Positions 12,416-34,369 of a DNA stretch of 64,000 bases are shown here, piece by piece (position 1 is the first letter of the stretch; each line of letters starts with the position of its first letter). The notes under the pieces are model-generated. The model worked only from the letters and a program-made list of their open reading frames with translations. It searched no databases and had not been told where the DNA came from. The stretch lies in NCBI GenBank assembly GCA_027028245.1, contig JALVJO010000057.1, forward strand, positions 27,759 to 91,758, given 5' to 3'. Both the position numbers and the translations under genes were made by a program. This stretch comes from Deltaproteobacteria bacterium. GTDB lineage: Bacteria > Desulfobacterota > Dissulfuribacteria > Dissulfuribacterales > QOAL01.

Positions 12416-13864
12416 TCAGAGTTTCCCCAGTTCTGCCGTACTTATCCTTCTTCCTTTTTTCCTGAATTCCTCCACCTCAAGCCCGTGTTTTTCTATGAGC
12501 TTATACAGATCCGCCCTGTAATATCCGGCAAGTTTTGCCGCGGCACTGATATTGCCCTTGGTAAATCGCAGAAGATCTTCAAGGTATTTCCTGGTGAATT
12601 CAAACCTAGCATCTTTCAAGGGCACGAACGAAGAACTCCTGGAAAAATCTGCCAGGGGCGTATTGGCCAGAAGCTCCTTGTTTATCACCTCACCCTGGCA
12701 GGTCGCCGCCAGGAAGTCCACAAGGTTCTCAAGCTCCCGGACGTTTCCCGGCCAGTCGTATCTCTTGAGTGCCTCAAGCACATCTTCGTCTATCCAGTTT
12801 ATCTGCTTTTTCATCTTTTTAAGGGCTGGACCAAGAAAATGACCGAAAAGGACAGGAATATCTTCCCTCCTTTCCCTTAGAGAAGGCATTACCAGAGGAA
12901 CCACGTGGATCCTGTAAAAAAGATCTTCCCTGAATGTGCCTTGAGCCACCATTTTCTTCAGGTCCCTCTTGGTTGCAACTATGAGCCGCACGTCAACCTT
13001 TCTTATCCTGTCGCTTCCCAGGGGCTTGACCTCACCTGTCTCTATGACCCTCAGGAGTTTGGCCTGCATGGATTCGGCCATTTCCCCCACCTCGTCCAGG
13101 AAGAGCGTTCCCTTGTCTGCAGAGGCGAAAACACCGTTTTTGGATGTAACGGCCGATGTGAAGGCGCCGCGGACATGGCCGAAGAGCTCATCTTCCAGCA
13201 TGGTTTCAGGAATCGCAGCACAGTTTACTGCCACAAAAGGCCCCTTGCTTCGGCTGCTGTAAAGGTGGATTGCCTGTGCTACAAGCTCCTTACCCGTACC
13301 TGATTCTCCGAATATGCTGACCGTAATGTCCGTGGGTGCCACCTGAAGAATCTGCTTGAAAACCGCCTTCATCCTGGCACTCTTGCCGATAATACCGGCA
13401 AATTCGTGCTGTCCCTCGAGAAGCCCCTCAAAATCATGTATCTTTCTCAGCAGAATCCTTTTTTCAAGTGCCTGTTCAATCTTGATTTCGAGTTCCTGAT
13501 GATCCACCGGCTTTGTAACATAGGAGAAGGCACCGGCTCTAATGGCTTCTACCGCCTGCTCTATGGTGCCGTAGGCCGTAAATATTATTGTCTGGAGGTA
13601 TGGATTTATCTCAAGACACTTCTGCATCAAATCCTGGCCGGAGAGATTCTCCATCCTCTGATCAGTGATGAGCAGCTCGATATCCTGCCTGTCAGAAAAT
13701 ATTTCCAGGGCCTCTAAAGGATCCGTGGTGGCAGTTACCTGGTAACCAAGCAGTTCCAGGCGCATCTTCATAACCTCTAGGATGGCCTGCTCGTCATCGA
13801 CCAGGAGGATCCTGGCACTGGTACGGGAAACACCCGGGTTTTCGGTTGCCTCGGTTTTTTGCAT
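12416..13864 (-). CDS. Sigma-54-dependent response regulator (NtrC family)
   Basis: Receiver domain (ILLVDDEQA, LITDQRMENLSG). AAA+ domain with GESGTGKE, a GAFTSA variant loop and LFLDEVGE. C-terminal HTH. Confidence 0.9.
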   Translation of the reverse strand: MQKTEATENPGVSRTSARILLVDDEQAILEVMKMRLELLGYQVTATTDPLEALEIFSDRQDIELLITDQRMENLSGQDLMQKCLEINPYLQTIIFTAYGTIEQAVEAIRAGAFSYVTKPVDHQELEIKIEQALEKRILLRKIHDFEGLLEGQHEFAGIIGKSARMKAVFKQILQVAPTDITVSIFGESGTGKELVAQAIHLYSSRSKGPFVAVNCAAIPETMLEDELFGHVRGAFTSAVTSKNGVFASADKGTLFLDEVGEMAESMQAKLLRVIETGEVKPLGSDRIRKVDVRLIVATKRDLKKMVAQGTFREDLFYRIHVVPLVMPSLRERREDIPVLFGHFLGPALKKMKKQINWIDEDVLEALKRYDWPGNVRELENLVDFLAATCQGEVINKELLANTPLADFSRSSSFVPLKDARFEFTRKYLEDLLRFTKGNISAAAKLAGYYRADLYKLIEKHGLEVEEFRKKGRRISTAELGKL

Positions 13865-13939
13865 GAAAGATTAACCTTTTGCTGATATGATGGAATTATT
13901 ATTTTGCTTCAAAATGGAAGAGCGTATGATGTCCTGAAG

Positions 13940-15445
13940 ATGAAATTCTTTTCCTTTTTCAGTCTATATCAAAAACTCCTGGCAGGCTATTTATTTTTAC
14001 TGGCCATACTCATCCTGCCATGTCTGTTTTCCATTTATTCCATTTATAAAATAGAGGCAACAGTTTCCACGTTTTTTAAGCGAACCCTGGAGCTTTCATC
14101 GTCCATCGAATATGCAAAAAACCTGGTTCCGTCCCTGGAAGCAGAAGCAAGGCGGCTGATAATACTTCACAAGGAAGACTCCCTGAAGGCGGTAAAACCC
14201 CTTATAGCAGACCTGGAGCACAGGATAGATCCCCTTGCTGTTTCAGACCCTCCTGACCTGGAAAATAATTTCAAGGAGTTCAGAAATACGCTTGCCATGC
14301 TCAAGTTTCTGGTTTCACAGCCGGACATCCTGAAGGAACACCAAACCGGAACTCAGGGCGTCGATATTACCGACGAGGCCAGGGAACAGGAAATAAAGGG
14401 CCTTACTTACCACCTGATGGAGCTGCTCAAAGAGGCTGAGGCAATACAAAAAAGATCCCTTGAACAAAAATCCCGTGAAAGTGCAGAAATCATATCACAG
14501 GTAAAAAACGGCACCCTTCTCCTGCTCCTTCTTGCGACCATAGTTGCCCTTACAGTGCCATGGGCATTGTACATCTACATAAAGAGGCCTTTGGGATTTC
14601 TTCAAAAAGGCATCCACGCCATAAGCAAGGGGGATTTTGATCATCAGATCCCTGTGGTAAGCCGGGATGAACTTGGCGAACTGGCCGATTCCTTCAATCA
14701 TATGGCACATAGCCTCAAGGAACTTGACACCCTTAAATCAGACTTCATAGCAGTTGCCAGCCATGAGCTGAAAACCCCCCTGGCTGCCATGATGGAAGCC
14801 TCCAAGCTCCTGGGAGAACCCCAGATCGGACACCTCAATGAGAGACAGAAAAAGCTGGTAACAGTTCTCAACACCAGCATGACCAGATTCAAGACACTTG
14901 TGGAAGAACTGCTGGATCTTTCCAAGATGCAGGCCGGGCTCGTCAGCCTGGGAAAGGACAATGTAGACATAAGGGAAGTGGTGGACTCTGCAGTAAAGGA
15001 ATTCAGCCCCATTGCCGCTGCCAAAAACGTCAGCATTTTAACAGAGTATCCGGAAAGGGATATTCACATCGAAGCCGACGGCAAAAGACTGAAACGGGCC
15101 CTGATCAATCTCCTGGACAATGCCTTGAATTTCACAGATAAAGGCAGAGACATAAAGGTCGTTGTCCAAAATGCTGACGGCAAAAGGGGAAGAAAACTCC
15201 AGATAATCGTGGTAGATGCCGGCCCGGGAATCCACAAGGCTGAACAGAAACAAGTCTTCGAAAAGTTTTATCAGTCCAGGATAACCCCCAGACAGAGCGG
15301 AAGTGGTCTGGGGCTTACCATTGCCAGGCAGATAATAACTGCCCACGGAGGTGAAATTTGGATACAAAGTCCGCCGGAAACGAAATACGCCCTGGAAGAA
15401 GGTACTGGTACTGCTGTTTTTGTACAGTTGCCCTTTCAGCCCTGA
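13940..15445 (+). CDS. Sensor histidine kinase with HAMP domain
   Basis: Two TM segments and a HAMP region (GDFDHQIPVVSRDELGELADSFNHM). H-box VASHELKTPLAAM, N box LLDNALNF, G boxes DAGPGI and GSGLGLTIA. Divergent from the adjacent EBP gene. ATG 13940 is preferred over TTG 13904. Confidence 0.9.
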   Translation: MKFFSFFSLYQKLLAGYLFLLAILILPCLFSIYSIYKIEATVSTFFKRTLELSSSIEYAKNLVPSLEAEARRLIILHKEDSLKAVKPLIADLEHRIDPLAVSDPPDLENNFKEFRNTLAMLKFLVSQPDILKEHQTGTQGVDITDEAREQEIKGLTYHLMELLKEAEAIQKRSLEQKSRESAEIISQVKNGTLLLLLLATIVALTVPWALYIYIKRPLGFLQKGIHAISKGDFDHQIPVVSRDELGELADSFNHMAHSLKELDTLKSDFIAVASHELKTPLAAMMEASKLLGEPQIGHLNERQKKLVTVLNTSMTRFKTLVEELLDLSKMQAGLVSLGKDNVDIREVVDSAVKEFSPIAAAKNVSILTEYPERDIHIEADGKRLKRALINLLDNALNFTDKGRDIKVVVQNADGKRGRKLQIIVVDAGPGIHKAEQKQVFEKFYQSRITPRQSGSGLGLTIARQIITAHGGEIWIQSPPETKYALEEGTGTAVFVQLPFQP

Positions 15446-18955: not shown

Positions 18956-20266
18956 CTACATCTTATTGTGGCTGGCCCTCATCTGTGCGGCAAGTTCCTT
19001 GATCTCGCCAAGGTCCTTTGTCATCTGCGACCATCCATACCAGTAAGCATAATCCGGGTTTACATGGAAGAATGCCTGATATGCCCTCATCCTGTGCTTC
19101 ATGTACATCTGGAAGAGAACCTGCTCGATAAAGCTGACATTCTTGTCCATGTTCTTGTAGCTGTCAGAAGAACCCTCGGAATAGTCCGTCCTCAGGAAGT
19201 ACAGAAAATCAGGATATGCAAAGGCCTGCTTGTCGCGCTTCTTGAGAATGCCGTCCTTGTAGAGACCTGCAACTATATTTATGCCCTGGGCCAGGAGAAT
19301 CGTGGTCTTCTTGATCATCTCGTCACCCATATCGAGCTGGGTCTTTGCATAAGTCTTGGAGTGGCATGTTGCACACCTTGCAAGCATCTTGTCACGTTCT
19401 GTCTGCCATGCTTCCTGGGTAAGCCTTACCATGTCCACGGACTTTACTGCGTCCAGGCGTGCCGTGGGCTTTCCTGTTTCAGGATTGAGAACTCCCAAGG
19501 CCTTGAGAAGTGCTGCCTGTGCGTCTGCCCACTCCTTGTCCTGGATGGGGAGCCTTACACCCAAAAATCCCCATGCAGTGTGGTTGTTGTGTGTGCCGTC
19601 AGGAAGGTGGCAGAACTGGCAGGTCGGTGCAGGTGCATCCTTGGGAAGCTGGCCGCGCTGCTTGGCAAAATAGCGTTCCCCGTGCTTGGAGCTGGACCAC
19701 ATTTCCCACTGGGGGTGGTCGTAACCCATGTGGCACTGCTGGCATGCCTGGGGGTTCTGTGCCTCGGTCTTGGAAAAACTGTGGCGGGTATGGCACTCGT
19801 CACAGGAATTGTTCTGGTATCTCCATCCGTTTTCGTGCTGGGCCTTTTTCTGTGCCTCAGTCTTTATGCCCATGTTGTGGCATCCGCCGCATCCACGGCC
19901 GCCTTCCATAAGCTCATCAGGCTCTACATGCGTAATAGGCAGGGCATTCAACGAAGTCCAGCCGAACTGGTGCTTGCCTTTCTTGAAAGAGTTGAACTGC
20001 TCCTCGTGGCACTGCGCACAGACATGCTCATCGGGAAGCTGAACCTTTGCAACGTCATCTGCACTCTTGTGGGCATCACCGTGACAAACGTCACAGGTAA
20101 CGTCATTTTCCGCATGTTTGCTGACTGACCAATCCTTGACCTGCCCTGGTGTCATTTTCTTATGGCATGTTATACATGCATTTTCTGCAGCCGAGGCATT
20201 TATTGCAAAACACCAAATCATGAAACACAGCATAAAACTCATTGAATAACAAAACTTCTTCTTCAT
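18956..20266 (-). CDS. Octaheme c-type cytochrome, hydroxylamine oxidoreductase (HAO) family-like
   Basis: 436 aa with a signal peptide. Eight CXXCH motifs: CITCH, CDVCH, CAQCH, CGGCH, CDECH, CQQCH, CQFCH, CATCH. The segment CQQCHMGYDHPQWEMWSSSKHG resembles the HAO-family core. Confidence 0.75.
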   Translation of the reverse strand: MKKKFCYSMSFMLCFMIWCFAINASAAENACITCHKKMTPGQVKDWSVSKHAENDVTCDVCHGDAHKSADDVAKVQLPDEHVCAQCHEEQFNSFKKGKHQFGWTSLNALPITHVEPDELMEGGRGCGGCHNMGIKTEAQKKAQHENGWRYQNNSCDECHTRHSFSKTEAQNPQACQQCHMGYDHPQWEMWSSSKHGERYFAKQRGQLPKDAPAPTCQFCHLPDGTHNNHTAWGFLGVRLPIQDKEWADAQAALLKALGVLNPETGKPTARLDAVKSVDMVRLTQEAWQTERDKMLARCATCHSKTYAKTQLDMGDEMIKKTTILLAQGINIVAGLYKDGILKKRDKQAFAYPDFLYFLRTDYSEGSSDSYKNMDKNVSFIEQVLFQMYMKHRMRAYQAFFHVNPDYAYWYGWSQMTKDLGEIKELAAQMRASHNKM

Positions 20267-20533
20267 AGACCCTTTCTCCTCCTTTTTCGGGTTTTTTAAG
20301 GTTCTCTAATTTATTCTTCCCTTAAAACCACAAAACCATAGATATCACAGACTTATGCTAGAATCCCTGGGGACCCTGCCGCAAAAATGCTTTTTAAGAT
20401 CACTATGCAATGACAATCGTAAATGTTGAACCCGGTTTGCTAAGCAGAAAAAGCATGCAACATGCTATAATGGACACGATCTATCTTATTTGCATATAAT
20501 ATTTGCTATATTTTCTCCTGTAAACAGAAATAT

Positions 20534-22945
20534 TTATTTCTCCCCAGGGCTTTTTCCATCAACCATGCCTATTGCCGCATATACCCTGTTCAACCATTCC
20601 TGGCGCTTTTGGTCGGGCATAAAAATGACGAATTCTCCTATTGCCCTTTCAACCCCCATGAAATCTATAAGAAAATTATACACGGCATTGGCTGCGTCAA
20701 GGTCCGCACTGAGTGCCTGATTCTGGGCATCCAGAAGATCTATGATTGTCTTGATCCCCTCCATGTAAAAGTCTGTAACCAGGTCAAGATTTCGCCTGGC
20801 TGCCTCTGAAGCCTGCCTGGAAAGCGTGATGGAAGGGTAGGATGCCCTGGTCCTGTTAAGGGCTGCCAGGACATTCTGGATTATGGCCTCGGCCTTGGCA
20901 CCCCGATTGATTCGCAGCCTGGAGACTTCCTCCTGCAGCCTGCTGGCCTGTGCCACCCTTTTACCGCCTTCGAACAGGGGAATCCTGGCAAATACCCCGA
21001 CGTTCCAGTCGGTATCGTCAAGATTGCTCATGTGGCTGTCGCGCCTTCCCTCCCCGTCTTCAGCAAAGTACTGATCTACCTTCCATTCCACGGTGAAATC
21101 CGGAAGCCATATCTGTCTCCTGGCTGCTGTTTCCAGCCTTTCCTTGGCCTTGATTGCAGCATCATAACCCTTTAGCTCCGGGCGCAGTTCCAGGGCCCTC
21201 TTGGCGGCAAACCCCCTGAATTTTCTCATATACTTAGGGTTTTCCATAAGCTGATAAAAAAACTTGTCACCTATGATGAAAAGCGGGTCCTTTAGAGACG
21301 CCTCTTCCGGCTCGAAAAGCTCCTGCAATGGCCTGTGAAGAACACGGTTCAGGGCTTCCATGGCATCCATGGTATCGGATTCCCGGTAAAGCACCTCCCT
21401 CCGGTCATTGGCATACTTGGCCTCCCAGCGGTAAACCTCGTCTGGACCTGCCGCCCCGGTGGCCACCTTTATCCTGGCCCTTTCCAGATTTGCTTCTGTA
21501 AGCTTGAGATTTTCCTTGTATATCCGCTCAATGGTCTTGGCCCTTAAAACCCTGAGATAGGCAACAGAGGCATCATAGGTGACATCAAGCCTGACGGAAT
21601 CCATGTTCATCTGCCTGGCCTTCTGGAGGTGCTCCTCAGCAGTATAATTTGCCCATTTTTTGTCAGAATAAAGGAGAACAGACCCTCCGGCTGTACCGGT
21701 CCAAGCACGTTCAGGGCTCATCCCCCCGCCGGCCTTGGCCCTGTCCTGGTCTATGGCCCTGGCGCCTGTGGCTATATCTATCCTTGGAAGAAGATCTGCC
21801 ATGGCCTCCTTGACGGCATGCTCTCCAGCCCTGACGGAGGTCTTTGCCGCCTGGAGCCTCAAATTGGCCTCAACAGCCTCGTTCACAGCCTTTTTTATAT
21901 TCAGGCGCCGCCCTATATCCTTGCGCTCACCATTGATAATGTGTGCCTTGGTAATGATCAGAAGACTGGGATAAACGTCTATGGCCCGGGCCGTGGCCAT
22001 GTTAATGGTAAGACGCCTGTTCCTGATATAATCCACATTGATATTCGACGGGCTCTTGCCCGAAAGGATATCGGTTACGGCCACTGCCGTGCGGCGGGCA
22101 AGTATATCCTGCTTTTCTTTGGACTCCAGACCTGCCAGCAGTCCTTCTTCAACCTGGTCTTCACTCCACAAAGCAAAGCCTGCTACCCTCTTATTGATAA
22201 GGCCCTGGGCAAGCCGGCGCATCTGCTCCTTGTCAAAATGCCATAGTGCACCTACAAAGGCTGCATCGGCTGTTGCCGGCAGGTTGTTCAATACTTTGTC
22301 GGCAGAATTTTCAGCGGGAATTATGGTCAGGCTTATACCGTGCTTGGAAGCAAACTTTTGCACCAGTCCCGGAAGCACGGGAAAGGCATCAATCTCCCGC
22401 CTGTCCAGGATCAGAACAGCATCTTTAAATTTCACTATCTTCCTGAAGGTGTCTATATCACTGTCCAGATGATAGACAGAATCTACATACACCATGTTTC
22501 CGATGTTTCGCGAGCCGGCCTTTTTAATCTTGTCTTTCAGGGTAAACCAGGCCACAAATGGGGCCACAACAGGCCTTGATACCTTTTGATTGTCCAGGCA
22601 TTGGGCCGCAGAAATCACGCCCAGGGTAAGGATTATGTCAGGGCCGCCGGGAGAAAAGAGTCTTGAAAGGGCCTTCTTTGCCCCGCCCCTTTGGCCGCCG
22701 CCTGAAAGGACAAATCCATCTGGAAATCTGAAACTCGTCTGTGCGTCGGACAGGGCATTCAGCTCCTTTTCATACATATGAACCAGCTCTTTGTCAGCGG
22801 GAGTGGCCCCGTCTGTCACTATGCCAATGGTAAACGTCCTGTGTTTCAGCGGCCCTATGTCGCAGCCCTGTGCCCAAACGGAAAGTACAGACATGGCCCA
22901 GAGCAGAATTCCGCAAAAGACGTACAGACAATTGCGTTTTATCAT
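20534..22945 (-). CDS. Outer-membrane efflux factor (TolC/OEP family) with a roughly 300-aa N-terminal periplasmic-binding-protein-like extension
   Basis: The C-terminal ~460 aa have the two-repeat OEP pattern (coiled-coil-rich, LRLQAAKTSVRAGE..., LDLVTDFYMEGIKTIIDLLDAQNQAL). The gene is last in the MFP-RND-OMF operon. The N-terminal part (about 21946..22834) ends in a GKSPSNINVDYIRNRRLTINMATARAIDVYPS pattern reminiscent of ABC_sub_bind-type PBPs. The start MIKRN (22945) is preferred. Confidence 0.8.
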   Translation of the reverse strand: MIKRNCLYVFCGILLWAMSVLSVWAQGCDIGPLKHRTFTIGIVTDGATPADKELVHMYEKELNALSDAQTSFRFPDGFVLSGGGQRGGAKKALSRLFSPGGPDIILTLGVISAAQCLDNQKVSRPVVAPFVAWFTLKDKIKKAGSRNIGNMVYVDSVYHLDSDIDTFRKIVKFKDAVLILDRREIDAFPVLPGLVQKFASKHGISLTIIPAENSADKVLNNLPATADAAFVGALWHFDKEQMRRLAQGLINKRVAGFALWSEDQVEEGLLAGLESKEKQDILARRTAVAVTDILSGKSPSNINVDYIRNRRLTINMATARAIDVYPSLLIITKAHIINGERKDIGRRLNIKKAVNEAVEANLRLQAAKTSVRAGEHAVKEAMADLLPRIDIATGARAIDQDRAKAGGGMSPERAWTGTAGGSVLLYSDKKWANYTAEEHLQKARQMNMDSVRLDVTYDASVAYLRVLRAKTIERIYKENLKLTEANLERARIKVATGAAGPDEVYRWEAKYANDRREVLYRESDTMDAMEALNRVLHRPLQELFEPEEASLKDPLFIIGDKFFYQLMENPKYMRKFRGFAAKRALELRPELKGYDAAIKAKERLETAARRQIWLPDFTVEWKVDQYFAEDGEGRRDSHMSNLDDTDWNVGVFARIPLFEGGKRVAQASRLQEEVSRLRINRGAKAEAIIQNVLAALNRTRASYPSITLSRQASEAARRNLDLVTDFYMEGIKTIIDLLDAQNQALSADLDAANAVYNFLIDFMGVERAIGEFVIFMPDQKRQEWLNRVYAAIGMVDGKSPGEK

Positions 22946-22967
22946 GGTGTAACTCCTAGGAAACTGA

Positions 22968-25900
22968 TCATTTGATATTAAAAAACGTGGCATAAAGTAC
23001 CGGGACGAATACCAATGTGAGAACAGTGGCGAAACCGAGACCGAACACTATCGTCACGGCCATGGATACGAAAAATGCATCCTGGAAAAGCGGTATCATA
23101 CCCATCATGGTCGTAAGGGCCGCCATCATAACCGGCTGCATCCTGGACACACCTGACTCAAGGATGGCATCCATGCCCTTCATCCCCGACCTTATGTTTA
23201 TATCTATCTGGTCTATCAGAACCAGGGCATTTTTAATGAGCATTCCGGAAAGGCTCATAAGCCCCAGCAGAGCCATGAAACCAAAGGGCTGATGAAGAAT
23301 CAAAAGACCTGCCGTCACACCGATCAATGCCAAGGGGACGGTCAGCCAGATGATCAGGGGCTGCTTGAATGCATTAAACATGAAAATCACAATGAGCACC
23401 ATCATACCGAAATAAATAGGAATGTTTGCGGCAAGCTGGGCTTGAGAATCCGAAGAATCCTCCAGCTCTCCCCCCCAGGCCATGAAGTAGCCCGGTTTTC
23501 CCTTAAGAGGTAAAATATCGTCGTATTTTATAGGTATGGTGGAGGCAGTCCATTTTTCACCTTCTTCCAGGGGCTTTCCTCTGTAGGCTGCAAGATCCAC
23601 TCCCAGGGCCTGTTCTATCCGGGGTTTCACCCTGGCCATGAGTTCAGCCGGAAGCTCATCACCCCTTGGATCGGCGTGGATCTTTATCATGAGCCTCCTG
23701 TGCCAGCGGGAAACCCTGGCATTTTCCCATCCTGTCTCAAGACCATTCAAAACCTGGAGAATGGGTACATACTTCCCTGCCATGGGACTGAACAGCTGGA
23801 TCTCGGAAAGGTCCTCAATGCTGTCTCTTTCCTGGTCCGGGGCCCTGGCTATTATGGGAATAAGGTTTATACCCTCCCGGTATACGCCGGTGGTGGTTCC
23901 GGAATAGTTTGACTGTATCGCCTGGGCCACCATAGGCCTTGTGATCCCGAGCGACATGGCCCTGTCTTCAGCAAGTACAGGAATGGGTACCTTAACCTTT
24001 TCACCCCATTCAGTTCTCACAGCCTTGGCGTTTTCCTCCCTGAATATATTCATGGCCTTTTCAGCCATAGCCCTGAGTTCTTCCGGGTCGGACCCGTTTA
24101 TCCGAAGCTGGATCTTGCCACCGCTGGCCGGGCCCAAATTGAACTTTTTGACGTTTATGCAGGCATCCGGGAACATCCTTTCCAGGTCGTTCTGCACCTT
24201 CACCCTCATTTGCTCGATGAGCTTGTATTCCTTGACGGAAACCAGGACACATGCATACTGACTTGCTGCGTCCACAGGAACACTGTATGTGAGCAGAAAA
24301 CGCGGGTGACCTCCGCCTATGGCTGATGCCGTCATGGTGACACCATCCTGTTTTTTCAGGTATTCCTCCATGCGCGCCACCTTTTCTTCAGTATCCTTTA
24401 TGTGAATCCCTTCCCTGAACTGGCATTCCACCATGAACTGGGGTCTTGTGGATGCAGGAAAAAAGAGCTGCTTCACGTATCCGAATCCAAAGACAGACGC
24501 TGCAAAAAGGGCAACAACCACGCCGATGGAGACCCACCGGGCCTTTATTGCAAGGGCGAGAAACTTTCTATACAACTGATAGAACTTTCCGCCATAGACA
24601 TCTTCACTGCTTCCGCCCTCATCCATCTCCTTTTTACTAAGGACAAACTTTGTTGTTATGAGGGGCGTGGTGGTAACAGCCGTTAGCCAGGACAAGGAAA
24701 GGGAGATCAGGATCACGTAGTACAGCGACTGGCAATACTCCCCTGTGGAATTGCTCATGCCGCCGATGGATGCAAAGGCCATAACGGCTACTGCAGTAGC
24801 TGCAAGAAGAGGCATGGAATTCTGCCCCACCACTTCCTTTGCAGCTGTCAGCCCGTCCATACCCTGCTTCATCTTTACCTTCATGCCGTCAACCACCACA
24901 ATGGCATTGTCAACCAACATTCCAAGGGCAATGATGAGGGCCCCAAGGGATATCCTTTCCAGGGTGATATGATAATAACCCATGACTACGAAGGTGGCAG
25001 AAATGGTCAGAAGCAGGATGAACCCTATAATCATTCCTGCCCGCACCCCCATGAAAACTGCCAGAACTACAATGACAATTGCCACTGACTCCAGGAGATT
25101 AATGACAAAACCGTTAACGGCCTTGGTGACCGACTTGGACTGCATGGAAATCTCTTTCAGTTCCACGCCTATTGGTATCTGTCCCTGGAGCTGCGCCAGC
25201 CTCTTAAGTACGGCATTTCCCATGGTTACGGCATTTCCGCCAAGGACAGTGGAAATGGCTATACCTACACCTTCCTTTCCGTCCACCCTCAAAATCTTTG
25301 AGGGCGGATCCACATATCCCCTCTTTATCCTGGCTACATCCTGGAGGTAGATCAGCTTTCCATCCTTTGAGGCAATAAAAAGCTTTCCGAAGTCCTTTTC
25401 AGACTTGAATTCTCCTGTGGGGTTGATGGCAAGATACTGGGTGCCGAATTTTATCCAGCCTGAATCAACCGCGATGTTCTTGGCCTTCAAGGCATTGAAA
25501 ATATCCTGCCTGGTTATTCCTAGGGCCGCCATCTTGGACCGGGACATCTCTACATATATGGCCTCGGGCCTGATGCCGAACAGTTCTACCTTCTTTACAT
25601 CCTGAACCACAAGCAGCTCCCTCTGAAGGAGCTCTGCGATATCCTTGAGTTCAGCAAAGGTGTATCCATCGCCCACCAGGGCAAAATAGACACCGTAAAC
25701 ATCCCCGAAATCGTCGTTGACGGATATTGGCCCGGCACCCGGAGGAAGATCCTTTTCGTGGTCGCCCATCCTCCGCCTGAGTTCATCCCACACCTGGGGA
25801 AGCTGATTTTTGCGGTACTCGTCCTTGATCTTGACATTCACTATTGAAAGGCCCCGGGAGGAATAGGACTCTACCCGTTTCAGCTGGCCCATTTCCTGGA

Positions 25901-26111
25901 CAGCCTTTTCTATTACTTCCGTAACCTCTTCCTGCACCTCCATGGGCGATGCCCCTGGGTAAGGGGTTATTATTACGGCCTCCTTGATGGCAAATTCCGG
26001 GTCTTCCAGCCTTGGAAGGCCCATGTATGAAAAATATCCCAGCACCAGGACCACAAAGGTCAGGGTCCAGGTGATGACATTCTTTTTTATGGCAAATTCG
26101 GCTATATTCAT
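22968..26111 (-). CDS. RND efflux transporter, inner-membrane permease (AcrB/HAE family)
   Basis: 1047 aa. 12-TM RND architecture with two large periplasmic loops. Flanked by MFP and OMF genes. Confidence 0.95.
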   Translation of the reverse strand: MNIAEFAIKKNVITWTLTFVVLVLGYFSYMGLPRLEDPEFAIKEAVIITPYPGASPMEVQEEVTEVIEKAVQEMGQLKRVESYSSRGLSIVNVKIKDEYRKNQLPQVWDELRRRMGDHEKDLPPGAGPISVNDDFGDVYGVYFALVGDGYTFAELKDIAELLQRELLVVQDVKKVELFGIRPEAIYVEMSRSKMAALGITRQDIFNALKAKNIAVDSGWIKFGTQYLAINPTGEFKSEKDFGKLFIASKDGKLIYLQDVARIKRGYVDPPSKILRVDGKEGVGIAISTVLGGNAVTMGNAVLKRLAQLQGQIPIGVELKEISMQSKSVTKAVNGFVINLLESVAIVIVVLAVFMGVRAGMIIGFILLLTISATFVVMGYYHITLERISLGALIIALGMLVDNAIVVVDGMKVKMKQGMDGLTAAKEVVGQNSMPLLAATAVAVMAFASIGGMSNSTGEYCQSLYYVILISLSLSWLTAVTTTPLITTKFVLSKKEMDEGGSSEDVYGGKFYQLYRKFLALAIKARWVSIGVVVALFAASVFGFGYVKQLFFPASTRPQFMVECQFREGIHIKDTEEKVARMEEYLKKQDGVTMTASAIGGGHPRFLLTYSVPVDAASQYACVLVSVKEYKLIEQMRVKVQNDLERMFPDACINVKKFNLGPASGGKIQLRINGSDPEELRAMAEKAMNIFREENAKAVRTEWGEKVKVPIPVLAEDRAMSLGITRPMVAQAIQSNYSGTTTGVYREGINLIPIIARAPDQERDSIEDLSEIQLFSPMAGKYVPILQVLNGLETGWENARVSRWHRRLMIKIHADPRGDELPAELMARVKPRIEQALGVDLAAYRGKPLEEGEKWTASTIPIKYDDILPLKGKPGYFMAWGGELEDSSDSQAQLAANIPIYFGMMVLIVIFMFNAFKQPLIIWLTVPLALIGVTAGLLILHQPFGFMALLGLMSLSGMLIKNALVLIDQIDINIRSGMKGMDAILESGVSRMQPVMMAALTTMMGMIPLFQDAFFVSMAVTIVFGLGFATVLTLVFVPVLYATFFNIK

Positions 26112-26114
26112 TGC

Positions 26115-27236
26115 CTAAATCCCTGCTCTTTGTTTTTCCCAGGGCCTTACCTTCATCCCCGCCTTAAGCTTTGTGACCCCGGCGATAACGATGATCTCAC
26201 CGGGCTTGAGTCCATCTTTTATGCTGATGCCACTGGAATTCTTGAGGCCTCCGATGGTAACATAACGTTTTTCAACCTCCCCTTTATCCGGCAAATAAAC
26301 CCAGACGTAGGGCTTGTTTTTTGGCGCATCCAGCACGGCCAGGGCCGGAAGAATTATTTGCGGTTTCCTGCCCGCCAGATCCGGCTTCATGGCAGCAGTA
26401 ACGGTTGCTGTCATACCTGGAAGAATATTGGCTTCCTTGGGCTGATCCGTGACAAAGACCACCTGGTATGTCTGGGTGGCGGGATCTGCCTCTGTGGAAT
26501 ATTCCTTCAATTCCAGGGGAAATGTCTTTCCTGGGATGGATTCAAAGGAGGCAACTACTTCAGCAGAACTTTCACTCCGAATGGCTGCCATGACCAGTTC
26601 AGGGACGTTGACCAATATTTCTATCCTGGAGATGTCCTGCAGGAATACTATGGGATCCTTTGCCTTTACCTTGTAAAAATTTTCCACGTATCTCTTGGCA
26701 ATGACCCCATCAAATGGGGCCCTGAGAGTCGTATCGCAAAGGGCATTCTTTGCGTCCTGGAGTTTGGCAAAGGCCACATCCCTGGCAGCCCTGAACCTGT
26801 CAAAATCCGCCTTTGAAACCTGTTTTTTTGCATAGAGCTCCTTGTACCTGGCAAACTGCTGTTCCGCCTCCCTGTAGGTGGCAAGGGCTTCTTTCACACC
26901 ATTTAAAAAATCCCTCTTATCAATCTGCGCGATAAGATCTCCCTTTCTGACATGCTCTCCCTCTTCAACGGGCAGCTCCACCAGAGGGCCAGATACCTTG
27001 AACGAGAGCACAGCCCTCTTGCTGGCTCGCACCACGCCTGGAAACCCATGGGTAAGAAGGCTGTTTGTGTCCCTTACCTTCATAATCTTGACAGGACGAA
27101 TGACCTCCGCCTTCTCTTGTTGCTCTTTCTTGCCGCAGGCTGTCAAAGAAAAAAGGAGCACAAACACGAAAAAAAGCATTGAAATTTGTCCGAACAGATT
27201 GACCACCGACCCTCTTTTTAAAACCGATTTCATCAT
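26115..27236 (-). CDS. RND efflux periplasmic adaptor (membrane fusion protein, HlyD family)
   Basis: 373 aa. Lipobox LTAC. Lipoyl/coiled-coil/beta-barrel pattern (GDLIAQID, LRAPFDGVIA). Confidence 0.9.
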   Translation of the reverse strand: MMKSVLKRGSVVNLFGQISMLFFVFVLLFSLTACGKKEQQEKAEVIRPVKIMKVRDTNSLLTHGFPGVVRASKRAVLSFKVSGPLVELPVEEGEHVRKGDLIAQIDKRDFLNGVKEALATYREAEQQFARYKELYAKKQVSKADFDRFRAARDVAFAKLQDAKNALCDTTLRAPFDGVIAKRYVENFYKVKAKDPIVFLQDISRIEILVNVPELVMAAIRSESSAEVVASFESIPGKTFPLELKEYSTEADPATQTYQVVFVTDQPKEANILPGMTATVTAAMKPDLAGRKPQIILPALAVLDAPKNKPYVWVYLPDKGEVEKRYVTIGGLKNSSGISIKDGLKPGEIIVIAGVTKLKAGMKVRPWEKQRAGI

Positions 27237-27301: not shown

Positions 27302-28030
27302 TTATTTTCTAAGTGCCGGCTCCTGGTCTTTATCCTGTCTGGAAAATTCCTGTGATACCTGGATACCCACCAGTCTGGCCACCATCACGGCCATATAGAA
27401 CTGACCCACCACGGCCTCCACCTGACAGAGAGCTGCTGCACCAGGGGTTTGAGGAAGTATATCACCATAGCCCAGGGTTGTTAGGGTCACAAAGCTCAAA
27501 TACTCGTAAGGCTCCATGGAATTTGCCAGCTGGGACGAAGAGGAAAGGAGTGCCCCGCTGAACGAGCCTGGAACTGCCAGGTCCAGGATATTATATAATA
27601 TTCCCCACAAGGTCCCCATGAGCAGATAGAGGCACAATGCTGCGCTTATGAGATGGGAGTCAACCTTTCTGGCAGAAAATACATACCTGGTAAAGGCATA
27701 GACCAGCAGGAAGACGTAAAGTGCCATGATCAGCAGGCTGGCCATCCTGGACAGCGCCACTACATTAAAGACGCCCATCCAGAACAATAAAAGGGACAAG
27801 ACCATCAAAACCATCAGGTACTTGAAAAGCCTACTTTGCCTGTTTATGGCATAAACTGCTACAAGAAGCACCAGTGAAATGGAAACCGATGAAATAATAG
27901 AGGCATGGTGCAGGCTTTGAAGAAAGGGAGAAGCCAGGATATTGAGAAGCAGCCAGACAAGGAGATGCTGAAAACTGTAGCGACGAAGCAGCTTGTCTAT
28001 CAAATGGTATTTTGAAGTGGAAACCCTCAT
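27302..28030 (-). CDS. Potassium channel family protein (pore-loop, Ion_trans_2-like)
   Basis: 242 aa. Several TM helices and the K+ selectivity filter TLTTLGYGDI. Confidence 0.8.
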   Translation of the reverse strand: MRVSTSKYHLIDKLLRRYSFQHLLVWLLLNILASPFLQSLHHASIISSVSISLVLLVAVYAINRQSRLFKYLMVLMVLSLLLFWMGVFNVVALSRMASLLIMALYVFLLVYAFTRYVFSARKVDSHLISAALCLYLLMGTLWGILYNILDLAVPGSFSGALLSSSSQLANSMEPYEYLSFVTLTTLGYGDILPQTPGAAALCQVEAVVGQFYMAVMVARLVGIQVSQEFSRQDKDQEPALRK

Positions 28031-28116: not shown

Positions 28117-29442
28117 TCAAGAATCCATGGTGGGCCGTTTTTTTGGAAGCACTTTTTTGAGTACCATATATCCCGATATTCCGGCCAAGAAGGATGCAAT
28201 AAAAATGCTTATTTTTGCCTCGTCTACCATGGACTGGCTTGAAAATGCCAGTTCGCTGATGAAAATCGACATGGTAAAGCCGATTCCAGCCAAAATCCCG
28301 GCTCCCCAAAGATGAGACCATTTAACACCCCTTGGCATATCTGTAATTCGGCAGAAAATTGCCAGCCAGCTGAATAACAGAATACCTGCCTGTTTGCCGA
28401 TAACCAGCCCGAATATGATGCCTAGAGTTATAGTTCCTGGAAAATCCCCCAGTGTTTCGGCATTAAATGCCACTCCGGCAGAAAAAAGGGCAAAAAGGGG
28501 CAGGACAATAAAGGCCTGGACACTATGAAAATAGTGTTCAAGATACACTCCGGGAGGAATCATATCTTCAGCGGTAAGATAGATCTGTTCCACGGATTCC
28601 CACTGTTTCTTGTTGAAGACGAGACTGTCCCTGGTAAGAGGGCCGGACTCCTTAAGCCTTTTCATGTGTCTGGAAATGTTGTCGAAGAAAAGTCCCGGGT
28701 CAATTGTCGATTTTACTGGGATGAGAAGTGCGATCAGGACACCGGCGACTGTTGCATGAATGCCCGAAAACATCAGGCTTGCCCATACGCCTATGGCAGG
28801 AATCAGGTAAAGCCCTGGTCTTCTCGCCTGATAATGCACTGCAAAAAAGAAGAGAATGAGAAATATTCCGGCAGAAACAAGACTGTTGAAGTGGATCTGA
28901 GCAGTATAGAAAACAGCTATTACAAGTACTGCCATTAAATCGTCTACTATGGCAAGGGCTGTAAGAAAGACCTTCAGCCCGATGGGTACCCTTTTACCAA
29001 GGAGGGCAAGGATTCCAAGGGCAAAGGCAATATCTGTGGCCATTGGGATTCCCCAGCCGGCTGCCGTGTCCCCGGTCCTGTTAAAGGCATAATAAATAAA
29101 GGCTGGGACTAAGCAGCCTCCCATAGCTGCCATTACGGGAAGGGCAGCCTTCCGTATGGATGAAAGTTCTCCCAGAATAACTTCTCTTTTTATTTCAAGA
29201 CCCACCACAAAAAAGAAAAGGGTCATAAGCCCGTCTTTCACCCAATGGGCCAGTCCCATTTGATAGGTCTTTCCGGCAAAGACCACTCCGATATTCAAAT
29301 GACTCAGATTGTTATAAAGCTCGGACCAGGAAGAGTTAGCCCAAATTACTGCAGTAATTGCAGCCAGAATCAGGACGATACTTCCGGCAGCCTGGGAATG
29401 AAGAAATCTTTCAAAAAGGGACTTTTCCGTATGATTATTCAT
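28117..29442 (-). CDS. nhaA: Na+/H+ antiporter NhaA
   Basis: 441 aa polytopic protein. Signatures PMATDIAFALG and LAIVDDLMAVLVIA (the DD pair) match NhaA. Confidence 0.9.
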   Translation of the reverse strand: MNNHTEKSLFERFLHSQAAGSIVLILAAITAVIWANSSWSELYNNLSHLNIGVVFAGKTYQMGLAHWVKDGLMTLFFFVVGLEIKREVILGELSSIRKAALPVMAAMGGCLVPAFIYYAFNRTGDTAAGWGIPMATDIAFALGILALLGKRVPIGLKVFLTALAIVDDLMAVLVIAVFYTAQIHFNSLVSAGIFLILFFFAVHYQARRPGLYLIPAIGVWASLMFSGIHATVAGVLIALLIPVKSTIDPGLFFDNISRHMKRLKESGPLTRDSLVFNKKQWESVEQIYLTAEDMIPPGVYLEHYFHSVQAFIVLPLFALFSAGVAFNAETLGDFPGTITLGIIFGLVIGKQAGILLFSWLAIFCRITDMPRGVKWSHLWGAGILAGIGFTMSIFISELAFSSQSMVDEAKISIFIASFLAGISGYMVLKKVLPKKRPTMDS

Positions 29443-29597: not shown

Positions 29598-29630
29598 TCG
29601 AAACAAAAGGCCGGAGCTTGCTCCGGCCTT
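29598..29630 (-). terminator. Intrinsic terminator after the 29670..30212 gene
   Basis: The minus-strand RNA reads AAGGCCGGAG-caag-CUCCGGCCUU followed by UUGUUUCG. Confidence 0.7.
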
Positions 29631-31940: not shown

Positions 31941-34340
31941 TTAAATATCCAGCTCCTGTACTTCCAATGCGTGTGTCTGTATAAAATTTCTGCGAGGTTC
32001 TATCTTTTCACCCATTAGGGTGGTGAACAAATTTTCAGCCTCGTCTGCATCTTTTATGGATACACGCAACATGGACCTCTTTTCGGGGTTCATTGTGGTT
32101 TCCCAAAGCTGTTCAGGATTCATTTCTCCAAGGCCTTTATATCTTTGAACATTCAGCCCTCTTCTTCCCTCTTCCCTGAAAAATTCCAGGATAGATGCAA
32201 AGTCGGATACTGTCTTTAAAAGATTTTCTTCCTTCATGATATCAATATCCACGTCTATCATGTTTTCGACACGGCTGAACAGCTTGACAGCCCTGAGGTA
32301 TTCAGGACTTTTTACGAGATCAGGACCTACTTCAGTATTGAGATAGGCAAGACCCTTTGCAGCCACATTGAATTTGTATCCTGGAGTTTCGGAATCTGCT
32401 GATTTTACCGGTCCTGTAAGATATCCTTTGTCCTTGAGATAAGAAACCAGTTTCTCCACGTAGCCCAAATCCAGTAGCATGGCTGAATTTTTCAAACCGT
32501 GTTTAAGCAGGTCCTTGGCCAGCTCCTGCCAGCAGCCCTTCAGGGCAAGATCTTCCAGGGCCTTGTTGAAGGAGGCCATGTCCCCGAGGATCTTTTTAAG
32601 CCTTTCTCCTGAAAAGGATTTATCCCATCCCTTGGGCCTCAGCCTTATGGATTTAGTGGCCCTTTCAAACAAAAACAGATCCATTTCCGTCTCATCCTTG
32701 AGATATAGTTCCCTTTTCTTGCCGGATGATACCCTGAAAAGGGGAGGCTGAGCTATGTAAAGGTGGCCTCTTTCTATTATGGGCATCATCTGCCTGTAGA
32801 AGAACGTCAGCAGAAGTGTCCTGATATGGGCGCCGTCCACATCTGCATCGGTCATTATAACTATCTTGTGATATCTGAGTTTGTCAGGATCAAAGTCATC
32901 AGGGCCGATGCCTGTGCCCAGGGCACCTATAAGGTTCTTTATTTCCTCGCTTCCGAGCATCTTGTCATAACGGGCCTTTTCAACATTCATAATCTTTCCC
33001 CGAAGCGGTAAAATTGCCTGAAATGCCCTGTCTCTGCCCTGCTTAGCGCTTCCGCCTGCAGAGTCACCCTCTACTATGAATATCTCCCTTCTTTCTGGAT
33101 TTTTTTCCTGACATTCAGCAAGTTTTCCTGCCATCATAATGTCCTGGGACTGCCCCTTTTTGCGCGTTAGTTCCTTGGCCCTTTTTGCTGCTTCTCTGGC
33201 CCTTGCAGCATCTACCGCCTTGGAAAGTATCCTTTTGGCAATGGCCGGATTTTCTTCCAGGTAAGTGGACAATTTTTCGTGAACTACAGAGGCCACCACT
33301 GATTTTACTTCACTGTTTCCGAGCTTCGTCTTGGTCTGGCCCTCGAACTGGGGATTTGGAACCTTGGTGGAAATGACACAGGTCAGTCCTTCACGGACGT
33401 CATCACCTGATAGCTTTTCCTTTAGTTTCTTGGGAATTATATCATCACTTGCATATCTATTTATGCACTTGGTAAGTGCCTGCCTGAAACCAGTAACATG
33501 GGTACCGCCTTCCTTTGTCCGGATGTTGTTTACATAGCTTAATATCCTTTCCGCATAACCAGTATTGTACTGAAAGGCTACTTCCACCCTTATATCGTTT
33601 TTTTCTCCGCTGATATAAATGGGTTCTTTGTGTATTACGTCCTTGTTTTTGTTGAGATATTCAACAAACGAGACAATGCCGCCCTTGAAATGAAATGTCT
33701 TCTCTCTGCCTGTTGCTTCTTCTGATATCTTTATGGTGAGATTTGGGTTTAGAAATGCCAGTTCTCTCATTCTGGCTGCAAGTATCTCAAAATCGAAGGA
33801 ACAGGTTTCCTTGAATATCTCTGGATCAGGCTTGAATCTGACCCTGGTGCCGGTGAGCTTTGTATCCCCTGTCTCCTCCAGGGGAGTTACGGGATTTCCC
33901 TTTCTGTAAAACTGTCTGTATACACGGTTATTGCGGTAAACTTCTACTTCCAGGAACTCTGACAGTGCATTTACAACTGATATGCCGACACCATGGAGTC
34001 CGCCTGAAACCTTGTATGTCTGATGATCGAATTTTCCACCGGCATGAAGCTTTGTCATAACAAGTTCCAGGGCGGAAATTCCTTCTGTAGGATGTATATC
34101 TACGGGAATGCCCCTGCCGTTGTCAGTAACAGTTACACTGCCGTCTTCATGAAGAATAACTTCTATTTTAGTACAAAATCCTGCCAGGGCTTCATCTATG
34201 CTATTGTCAACAACTTCATATACGAGATGATGAAGTCCTTCAGAAGCCGTATTTCCAATATACATTGCAGGTCTTTTTCTCACTGCTGACAGACCTGACA
34301 AAACCTTTATCTGTTTTGCACCGTAATCAGTATCTTTCAT
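31941..34340 (-). CDS. gyrB: DNA gyrase subunit B
   Basis: 799 aa. GHKL ATPase ([22 protein letters not shown]), Toprim [21 protein letters not shown]-terminal [11 protein letters not shown]. Confidence 0.97.
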
Positions 34341-34369
34341 TTTTTATCTCAATGCTGCTGTAGCTAGAT

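Follow-up and report, generated by a model that had tools for sequence, protein, structure and literature searches.

Outer-membrane factors (OMFs) are usually treated as passive ducts of uniform architecture that only their adaptors can open. YbjP, described only in 2025-26, is reportedly the first accessory protein to be known on the equator of TolC. This lipoprotein is reported to bind E. coli TolC in a 3:3 ratio at the equatorial domain, to remain bound as TolC opens, and to be dispensable for efflux under laboratory conditions (PMC13095208). A further report proposes that the equatorial domain touches peptidoglycan, with the peptidoglycan layer lying between AcrA and TolC, and reports that YbjP showed no avid peptidoglycan binding (PMC13082787). 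The N-terminal helix of TolC, H1, is described as part of the same equatorial domain (PMC8277102).

Here we describe an OMF that carries an additional domain ahead of this helix. It is encoded in the window, by which we mean the whole 64,000-nt stretch of DNA that was analysed, and is an outer-membrane factor exported by the Sec route, with a complete clamshell of the PF04392 type added at its mature N-terminus. We regard this architecture, and the placement of its parts on the polypeptide, as virtually certain. The genes around it are as follows.

28117..29442 (-), NhaA Na+/H+ antiporter (Pfam E 5e-139)
27302..28030 (-), Ion_trans_2 K+-channel-like protein (Pfam) with a TTLGYGD filter in its sequence, 66 nt upstream of the MFP gene
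26115..27236 (-), periplasmic adaptor (MFP), 373 aa (TIGR01730, 243.5 bits against a cut-off of 94.9; Pfam HlyD_D23)
22968..26111 (-), RND permease, 1047 aa (Pfam ACR_tran, E 8e-146), upstream of the fusion gene
20534..22945 (-), PBP-domain::OMF fusion gene, 803 aa (open reading frame, translation, Pfam OEP and ABC_sub_bind)

As is the case for TolC/OprM-type OMF genes, the fusion gene comes after the MFP and RND genes, and it is the last in an operon of the order MFP-RND(MexK/TriC-like)-OMF. The first-pass annotation had described such a gene at these coordinates, last in an MFP-RND-OMF operon and coding for an OMF of about 800 aa with a PBP-like N-terminal region of about 300 aa, and each of these points was borne out. 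The closest solved relatives of the RND permease in the PDB are MexK (E 1e-182) and TriC, with 6VEJ matching at E 7e-174. Nearly all related loci with enough flanking sequence have the order MFP, RND, fused OMF, with RND permeases that are 71-94% identical. The fusion protein is the exit duct of the MexK/TriC-like RND pump encoded just upstream.

The K+-channel-like gene is a recurrent neighbour of the fused-OMF clade according to neighbourhood counts, and adjacency to NhaA was also seen in related loci. It is possible that nhaA is the first gene of a transcription unit that includes the fusion operon. The sole strong-looking terminator-like hairpin lies just upstream of the NhaA gene, at 29630..29607; the numbers of candidates in our promoter and terminator scan did not exceed those in shuffled sequences (13 vs 11.0 and 13 vs 11.1).

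The longest open reading frame at the locus (20534..22993, reverse strand) codes for 819 aa. The true start is likely to be the ATG at 22945, giving 803 aa: it follows a Shine-Dalgarno-like AGGAG, and homologs start at the equivalent position in the alignment. The stop codon of the RND gene, at 22970..22968, lies just upstream of the fusion gene. From this start the protein and its leader can be divided into the following parts.

22953..22957 (-), Shine-Dalgarno-like AGGAG, 7 nt ahead of the ATG at 22945 (read from the sequence)
22871..22945 (-), putative signal peptide, residues 1-25 (MIKRN followed by a hydrophobic core, with VWA before the predicted cut and Q after it)
21935..22846 (-), type-I periplasmic-binding-protein clamshell, residues 34-337, a divergent PF04392/ABC_sub_bind subfamily
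21899..21934 (-), linker, residues 338-349, consensus LLNExRxDIxRRLxL, joining the clamshell to OMF helix H1 (alignment and model elements)
20621..21898 (-), canonical TolC-type OMF body, residues 350-775 (H1/H2, four beta-strands, long helices and two OEP repeats)
20537..20620 (-), C-terminal tail with an extra helix at residues 778-792 (AF2 helix; alignment columns)
20534..20536 (-), stop codon

The signal peptide is probably cleaved between VWA and Q, judging by its sequence. In the AF2 model a helix spans residues 2-24 and is followed by a stretch with pLDDT below 50 at residues 24-33; equivalent N-termini are found in the aligned homologs. A cysteine follows the signal peptide at position 28, but this Cys28 is found in the closest relatives only (alignment A1). 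Since it is not conserved, the fusion family does not appear to be generally lipidated.

The C-terminal 457 aa share with TolC/OprM-type OMFs (PF02321) both OEP repeats, the four barrel strands and the long helices. Pfam matched OEP PF02321 in two stretches (E 2.1e-39, 135.7 bits against a cut-off of 22), and phmmer matched the OMF part to TolC (1EK9) at E 7e-13, with residue 361 of the query aligned to TolC residue 14. The full-length AF2 model of the 803-aa protein (pLDDT 84.1, pTM 0.69) has four beta-strands, a long alpha-helical tunnel and equatorial segments, as in the TolC fold, and its OMF part was matched by Foldseek to chains of TolC, OprM, CusC and VceC with E values of 6e-20 to 8e-15 and TM(target) of 0.67-0.80. 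Two features set the fusion apart from TolC/OprM-type OMFs, namely about 310 additional N-terminal residues that form a separate folded domain, and an additional C-terminal helix with an invariant Trp. In this tail W784 is invariant in the family and R781 nearly so; F775, just before the tail, is also near-invariant.

Scores against two curated NCBIfam OMF subfamilies stayed below their cut-offs, at 110.5 against 225.15 for TIGR01844 (type_I_sec_TolC) and 58 against 210.05 for TIGR01845 (outer_NodT). The fusion protein is a member of the OMF superfamily that belongs to neither TIGR01844 nor TIGR01845. In a quick tree its OEP part forms a long-branched clade separate from the five ordinary OMFs of the genome.

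The N-terminal domain shares the two-lobe type-I fold of the PF04392 proteins VC_1101 (3LKV), SP1069 (3LFT) and CD0873 (6HNI). Pfam matches PF04392 to residues 99-325 of the whole protein by a small margin (28.5 bits against a cut-off of 25.9), the N-domain alone scores 31.4 bits, and 35 of 42 members of the fusion family match at E<=0.01; a family profile searched against the PDB matched 3LKV at E 3e-11. When the isolated N-domain was modelled with AF2 (pLDDT 91.8, pTM 0.88), beta and alpha elements alternated along the chain. The best structural matches of this model are the three solved PF04392 proteins, with Z of 24.3 for 3LKV (289 of 296 residues aligned), 23.4 for 6HNI and 23.1 for 3LFT (284-289 residues aligned across the three), followed by the next fold group at Z of about 17. 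Sequence identity to these three proteins is 14-18%. They and the N-domain also have in common a C-terminal motif, L-x-I-N-x-x-x-A; a string that had been picked out at first pass as resembling the C-terminus of ABC_sub_bind proteins aligns to this motif in 3LKV.

Unlike the free or lipid-anchored PF04392 proteins of ABC importers, this domain is fused to an OMF, and we could not find ABC permease or ATPase genes among the open reading frames from 12.4 to 38.1 kb of the window (about 10 kb around the fusion gene). The N-domain is only distantly related to the stand-alone PF04392 proteins of the same genome (hhalign E 8e-4 and 0.35). Each of the three further PF04392 genes in the genome lies immediately upstream of a HAMP sensor kinase, with no ABC permease genes adjoining any of them, suggesting that the PF04392 family is used here for sensing rather than for uptake.

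Because the window stems from a metagenome-type assembly of 205 contigs, we had to ask whether an assembly error or a frameshift had joined two separate genes. This explanation is refuted, and we give it a negligible probability. Contigs from four runs of two studies span the domain junction (around residue 340) with no indel or joint; one of these contigs is 13,380 bases long and carries 4 SNPs. The same frame of about 800 aa is present in 22 of 24 genomes of the same family, and also in a 2.95-Mb isolate contig and in MAG chromosomes. The linker sequence is conserved among homologs as well, with a mean top-residue frequency of 0.67 over residues 331-350, a range that takes in the last seven clamshell residues, against 0.59 for the N-domain.

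Full-length homologs of about 800 aa number more than 120, and among the matches listed all 120 of 120 are 640-821 aa long; at E<=1e-10 there are about 800 relatives. A search of 1.84 billion representatives for relatives of the N-domain gave, among the best 150, an OMF part in 137, of which 110 are 740-1000 aa long; the other 13 are fragments of 153-503 aa. When the search was limited to short proteins, a stand-alone N-domain was not found, the three hits all being fragments or partial sequences. The OEP part used alone as query gave at least 120 hits, and the three shortest of these (P0273, P0274, P0275) start at an internal Met and lack a signal peptide. Together with P0124, P0135, P0139, P0173 and P0176 they were considered as possible split forms and were rejected as fragments, all eight either running into the OMF helix or beginning at an internal Met. 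On a MAG chromosome of the Nitrospiraceae (L061) an OMF with 52% identity to the OEP part looked unfused; it was also rejected, because a run of 100 N (7899..7998) directly precedes the match and the N-terminal part may therefore be missing.

Among close relatives we thus found no genuine split form and no stand-alone version of either half, and the fusion is ancient and obligatory for its OMF clade. It is conserved in many sulfate-reducer-type bacteria: the fused OMF forms at least 137 clusters at 50% identity and, in a sample of 300 genomes from the phylum, occurs in about 6%. The survey for fused and split genes and the coverage of the junction, both proposed by the first-pass annotation, accordingly spoke for a genuine fusion. 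Its further claim, that a domain of this kind is not a described feature of classical tripartite efflux systems, agrees with, but is not proved by, our searches of the open full-text literature, in which we found no published description of a PBP-OMF fusion. Hundreds of such proteins are present in databases, where they are called only 'TolC family protein' or, by JGI, 'outer membrane protein TolC/ABC-type uncharacterized transport system substrate-binding protein'.

The probable place of the clamshells in the assembled duct follows from the alignment taken together with TolC structures in the literature. Between the end of the clamshell and the residue aligned with residue 1 of mature TolC there are about 12 conserved residues. 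Since the clamshell joins at the position of the mature N-terminus of TolC and H1 starts at the equator, the trimer should have a belt of three clamshells encircling the periplasmic tunnel at its equatorial level. By this predicted placement the clamshell and YbjP (DUF3828) would both be accessory globular modules, three per trimer, at the OMF equator (PMC13095208, PMC13082787). YbjP is a separate, lipidated, non-covalently bound protein of unrelated fold, whereas the clamshell is covalently fused, mostly unlipidated and has a ligand-binding fold. Pfam gave no match to DUF3828 in the fusion protein, and the likeness to YbjP is one of place only.

At such a location the clamshell might grip the free amino-acid end of a stem peptide and so tie the duct to the sacculus at the equator. 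The solved PF04392 proteins are described as sharing one mode of binding for the amino and acid groups of their amino-acid ligands (PMC6816091; PMC10443332), and the proposed contact between the equatorial domain and peptidoglycan (PMC13082787) would suit an anchor of this sort. YbjP, at a similar place, is reported in the same source to lack avid peptidoglycan binding, and we consider the anchor improbable.

In the N-domain the family-invariant D45-G46 and G109 lie directly after beta-strands of lobe 1, and D181, R183, W/Y235 and W260 directly after strands of lobe 2. Sites right after strands are the usual cleft-lining positions in type-I PBPs. This topological argument from the secondary structure of the model hints at a functional cleft, with D45-G46, G109, D181, R183, W/Y235 and W260 as candidate cleft residues. 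The N-domain model is also nearer to the closed, liganded form of CD0873 (6HNI, Z 23.4, TMq 0.66) than to the open form (6HNJ, Z 20.1, TMq 0.55). Closed clamshells are often predicted by AF2, so the closed-like shape of the model says little. A further hint at a functional cleft is the sensor-kinase setting of the genome's other PF04392 genes.

In the solved PF04392 proteins the side-chain selectivity is described as being set by Ala246 and Tyr262 of VC_1101 (PMC6816091). These selectivity positions appear to be changed in the N-domain: in an alignment at 17% identity, A246 corresponds to W260 of the fusion family, and Y262 to D/E277, which adjoins a 2-residue insertion. Given these replacements, the aromatic-amino-acid pocket is probably not conserved in the N-domain and may be filled.

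The candidate cleft residues also differ between groups that are paired with different RND types. In the 34 sequences beside a MexK-like RND, D181, R183, the aromatic residue at 235 and W260 are kept in 33, 32, 32 and 29, respectively; in the 8 sequences beside an RND of about 32% identity they are kept in 1, 0, 0 and 0. Such a pattern, like the RND pump that always accompanies the fusion, would fit a clamshell that binds the substrate of the pump, or its precursor, in the periplasm and passes it to the pump or keeps it close to the duct. Phylogeny confounds this covariation, because those 8 sequences are the most divergent overall. We know of no route from the outer equatorial surface into the OMF tunnel, which counts against substrate capture. 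In AcrB-type RND pumps substrate uptake is moreover described as taking place at the porter domain, which is close to the inner membrane and a long way from the OMF equator (PMC8277102), and all told we find a capture role highly improbable.

The apparent change at the selectivity positions, together with the faster evolution of the N-domain relative to the duct (mean pairwise identity 0.45 vs 0.64), would be in line with a clamshell that binds no ligand and was recruited as a scaffold to the equatorial belt. There it would stabilise or position the OMF trimer in the envelope with no regulatory role, a part comparable to that of YbjP or, in OprM-type OMFs, of the N-terminal lipid anchor. That YbjP stays bound 3:3 at the TolC equator throughout opening and is not needed for laboratory efflux (PMC13095208) favours such a structural role. 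The short and conserved linker is compatible with it, and the family lacks a conserved lipobox Cys, so that another positioning device may be needed. Two observations argue against it. At least 137 clusters (50% identity) retain a full two-lobe clamshell and its hinge, although a domain that acts just as a spacer should tend to decay or become simpler; and, on the topology of the model, the invariant D45, D181 and R183 would lie at strand ends typical of a cleft and not on an obvious packing face. We think a purely structural role unlikely, though by no means far-fetched.

The first-pass annotation had put forward gating or recruitment of the pump as what such a domain could do. We tentatively propose that the clamshells form a ligand- or partner-responsive equatorial belt that tunes the assembly or opening of the duct, a reading to which we give somewhat less than an even chance. 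The clamshell would then have retained a functional cleft and would serve as a periplasmic sensor or docking module. Binding of a small ligand or a partner would close the clamshell, and closure would pass via the short rigid linker and the equatorial belt to the stability of the trimer, to the engagement of the adaptor or to the dilation of the lower tunnel; efflux would thereby be controlled from the outer-membrane end.

A clamshell joined by a short linker to a channel or receptor is also seen in the extracellular domains of the iGluR/GABA-B/mGluR type and in SBP domains on transporters and sensor kinases, a likeness of principle only, and clamshell receptor and channel domains of the iGluR/GABA-B/mGluR type are among the fold matches of the N-domain. 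By analogy, the fusion could be a ligand-gated exit duct, in which three clamshells would sense a periplasmic small molecule and the short conserved linker would transmit their closure to the belt, so that either the channel itself or its engagement of the adaptor would be switched on or off. The known clamshell-gated channels and receptors sit in cytoplasmic or plasma membranes, whereas the fusion duct lies in the bacterial outer membrane. We rate switching of this kind as distinctly doubtful; if true, it would be the first case in which efflux is under allosteric control at the level of the outer-membrane component, and would provide a counterpart of the clamshell-gated glutamate-receptor channels in the bacterial outer membrane.

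The finding flags hundreds of proteins that are annotated merely as 'TolC family protein'. With its covalent, stoichiometric and genetically simple arrangement, the family offers a system for asking whether the equatorial domain signals to the tunnel. That a large clade of OMFs invariably carries a fused ligand-binding fold points to the equatorial belt as a general platform on which accessory functions can be placed, and to the possibility that sensing or control of some pumps acts from the side of the outer membrane.

The longest open reading frame at the locus (ORF scan) spans 20534..22993 on the reverse strand, 819 aa. The ATG at 22945, which lies 22 nt past the RND stop codon, is preceded by an AGGAG at 22957..22953, and in the family alignment the equivalent Met is the start in homologs; the product is therefore 803 aa long, as the first-pass annotation had it. 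That annotation also placed the gene last in an operon of periplasmic adaptor (MFP), inner-membrane permease (RND) and outer-membrane duct (OMF), and the two expected partners indeed lie upstream on the same strand:

26115..27236, reverse strand, RND adaptor (MFP; Pfam, and TIGR01730 at 243.5 bits)
22968..26111, reverse strand, RND permease (ACR_tran; Pfam)
20534..22945, reverse strand, fused OMF

The order MFP-RND-fused OMF is the rule among related loci. The nearest solved relatives of the permease are MexK (E 1.2e-182) and then TriC 6VEJ (E 6.9e-174). At most related loci identity to the window is 71-94% for the RND and only 31-64% for the N-terminal domain of the OMF, so the pump is under much stronger constraint than the extra domain of its duct. 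Such unusual conservation of a MexK/TriC-like RND points to a housekeeping substrate, not to a role in drug resistance. A different RND, about 32% identical, adjoins the fused OMFs that have diverged most (L082-L089); in the two of these loci that were annotated, L086 and L087, a convergent MFP-RND operon is the pump, and L086 also has a TetR gene.

Core chromosomal genes surround the locus (rplM-rpsI, asd, gyrB-dnaN). gyrB and dnaN lie at 31941..35515 (-), 9 kb from the operon, so the region may be origin-proximal. A sigma-54 response regulator and a HAMP histidine kinase, divergent, occupy 12416..15445. A K+-channel-like gene (Ion_trans_2, TTLGYGD filter; 27302..28030, reverse strand) immediately precedes the pump operon, in the same orientation and with a 66-nt gap; next upstream on that strand, after 87 nt, comes nhaA (28117..29442). 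Of the 60 related loci with sufficient flank, 17 have a homolog of the channel gene no more than 3 kb downstream of the fused OMF, and 5 have one upstream; in distant lineages among them it starts 132-190 nt after the OMF (the loci cited for the channel and nhaA link are L011-L063, L089 and L061). The OMF gene is followed, after 268 nt, by a gene for a 436-aa multihaem c-type cytochrome (Multi-haem_cyto, Cytochrome_C7; 18956..20266, reverse strand); the three closest loci with downstream flank (L011, L012, L013) have it at the same position, at 89-92% identity.

The C-terminal part of the protein is a canonical OMF. Its Pfam matches include two OEP repeats (E 2.1e-39), as had been read from the sequence, and the best solved relative by sequence is TolC 1EK9 (E 6.8e-13), with residue 361 opposite TolC residue 14. 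The full-length model (pLDDT 84.1, pTM 0.69) has H1/H2, the long helices and two strand pairs (388-398/412-426 and 616-628/645-654). With it Foldseek matched TolC, OprM, CusC, VceC and others (E 6e-20 to about 1e-15) and no single solved chain spanning both domains. The protein belongs to the OMF superfamily and scores under the curated cut-offs of the NCBIfam OMF subfamily models. Past the Pfam OEP match the C-terminal tail (residues 776-803; 20537..20620, reverse strand) has an extra helix with an invariant W784 and a near-invariant R781, and a near-invariant F775 directly precedes the tail; the helix might lie packed on the equatorial belt or on the clamshell.

The region before the OMF part had been proposed to resemble a periplasmic binding protein, and the profile and fold comparisons agree with this. 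ABC_sub_bind (PF04392) matches residues 99-325 at 28.5 bits (gathering score 25.9), and 35 of 42 family members match it individually. A profile of these 42 found the solved PF04392 proteins 3LKV (VC_1101; E 3.4e-11) and 6HNI (CD0873; 1.4e-6). The AlphaFold2 model from the same alignment (pLDDT 91.8, pTM 0.88) is an alternating strand-helix, two-lobe type-I binding protein, for which 3LKV, 3LFT (SP1069) and 6HNI fill the top Foldseek ranks (E 1.6e-14 to 3e-13, TM 0.66-0.73). VIA-align scores these three at Z 24.3, 23.1 and 23.4 over 284-289 residues, and the next group (UrtA, LivK-type proteins, mGluR and GABA-B ectodomains) at about Z 17. As modelled, the domain thus has a real binding-protein fold, and it is a marginal member of PF04392 by sequence but a clear one by fold. 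The family hallmark is partnership with an ABC importer; the fused domain departs from it, and ORF annotation of 12.4-38.1 kb of the window found no ABC permease or ATPase gene. The same genome has three stand-alone PF04392 genes (C21:33300-34379, C21:105216-106268 and C109:22448-23365), whose products are related to the fused domain only remotely (hhalign E 8e-4 and 0.35).

The fusion is no assembly artefact. Logan contigs from four runs of two studies labelled 'hydrothermal vent metagenome', two of the runs not flagged as possible sources, cover 20400..23400 without an indel or joint, and the domain boundary is bridged by contigs of 1659 and 13,380 bases. The latter, from one run, carries four SNPs in the gene (20769, 22377, 22478 and 22568; all A>G or A>T), which are strain-level variation and leave the reading frame intact.

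Fused proteins are also widespread. The best 120 full-length homologs listed have 640-821 aa and 44-76% identity. Among 40 related genomes the N-domain is present in 22 of 24 from the same family and 2 of 16 from families elsewhere in the order; its reading frames have about 800 aa unless cut by a contig end. An evenly drawn phylum sample of 300 other genomes gave 19 with a strong match (E <= 1e-25); strong matches cover 14 of 201 genera, the window's own genome included, with two or three copies in some genomes. GTDB species representatives hold 198 stretches coding for relatives, mostly titled Thermodesulfatator sp., Desulfobulbaceae, Desulfocapsa, Desulfobacterales or 'Deltaproteobacteria' MAGs, one of them (L036) on an isolate contig of 2.95 Mb. 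The ESM Atlas contains clusters of 780-817 aa in which OEP stands either alone or together with ABC_sub_bind, most commonly labelled Thermodesulfobacteriota, Pseudomonadota and Bacteroidota.

In this OMF clade each half comes obligatorily with the other. HMMER against 1.84 billion representatives gave 1172 N-domain relatives at E <= 1e-3, of which 777 reach E <= 1e-10. Among the top 150, an OEP part can be recognised in 137, and 110 have a length of 740-1000 aa; the 13 that lack an OEP part (153-503 aa) are fragments ending within the domain, the linker or an out-of-frame tail. Limiting the search to proteins below 441 aa left three matches: a protein from a 1.2-kb contig, one labelled 'partial' and a 153-aa piece. 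When the OEP part alone was scored, the three shortest of at least 120 matches listed start at internal Met codons and lack a signal peptide. A quick maximum-likelihood tree groups the OEP parts from 39 fused proteins (and L061) in one clade (SH-aLRT 100) on a very long branch, well separated from the five ordinary OMFs that the window's genome encodes.

L061, the single relative that seemed unfused, was left out because a 100-N run (L061 7899..7998) directly precedes the match. The run, in a MAG 'chromosome', interrupts the OMF gene precisely in its N-terminal part, giving the look of an unfused form; such gaps are a trap in surveys of fused versus split genes.

In the model the clamshell's final strand reaches to about residue 337, and 350 is the first residue of helix H1; residue 348 is the counterpart of mature TolC residue 1 (alignment to 1EK9). 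The linker stretch (331-350) is better conserved than the N-domain, with a top-residue frequency of 0.67 versus 0.59. H1 belongs to the equatorial domain of TolC, according to the accessible text of PMC8277102, so three clamshells, each of about 35 kDa, should ring the equator of the trimer. YbjP, an E. coli lipoprotein, bridges TolC protomers 3:3 at this domain (PMC13095208, accessible part); the fusion protein would resemble it in place only, at most. Peptidoglycan contact has been proposed at the OMF equatorial region (PMC13082787, accessible part), and a clamshell acting as a peptidoglycan anchor is an improbable reading.

Some points speak for a working cleft in the clamshells. In type-I binding proteins the cleft is lined by positions right after beta-strands, and in the model topology D45-G46, G109, D181, R183, W/Y235 and W260, all invariant or near-invariant, each directly follow one. 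The model is also nearer to closed, liganded CD0873 than to the open form. The organism's other PF04392 genes adjoin HAMP sensor kinases, not ABC importers: a HAMP-HisKA-HATPase kinase gene lies directly downstream of all three, TonB-dependent receptor genes beside two, and ABC permease genes near none, so that receptor, binding protein and kinase look like a recurring module in this genome. We tentatively favour an equatorial belt responsive to a ligand or partner, which would tune duct assembly or opening; its likeness to clamshell-gated receptors would be one of principle.

A static collar is a somewhat less likely reading. Several points speak against a working cleft. The N-domain evolves faster than the duct, and YbjP, the only known equatorial accessory, appears structural. 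The candidate cleft residues D181, R183, the aromatic at 235 and W260 are kept in 33, 32, 32 and 29 of 34 proteins beside a MexK-like RND but in 1, 0, 0 and 0 of 8 beside the RND of about 32% identity, a switch inseparable from overall divergence. The accessible parts of PMC6816091 and PMC10443332 give L-Phe, L-Trp and L-Tyr as ligands of the three solved proteins, which hold the amino and acid groups in one common way; two selectivity positions published in the former become Trp and Asp/Glu beside an insertion, in an alignment at 17% identity. Substrate capture by the clamshell is very improbable.

Full-text literature searches found no paper on a PBP-OMF fusion, and the accessible text of a Chem Rev review of tripartite pumps makes no mention of an additional OMF domain. 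Databases name the homologs 'TolC family protein', JGI using a double name. This architecture is thus unreported in the literature searched, yet widespread, and its mechanism is directly testable.
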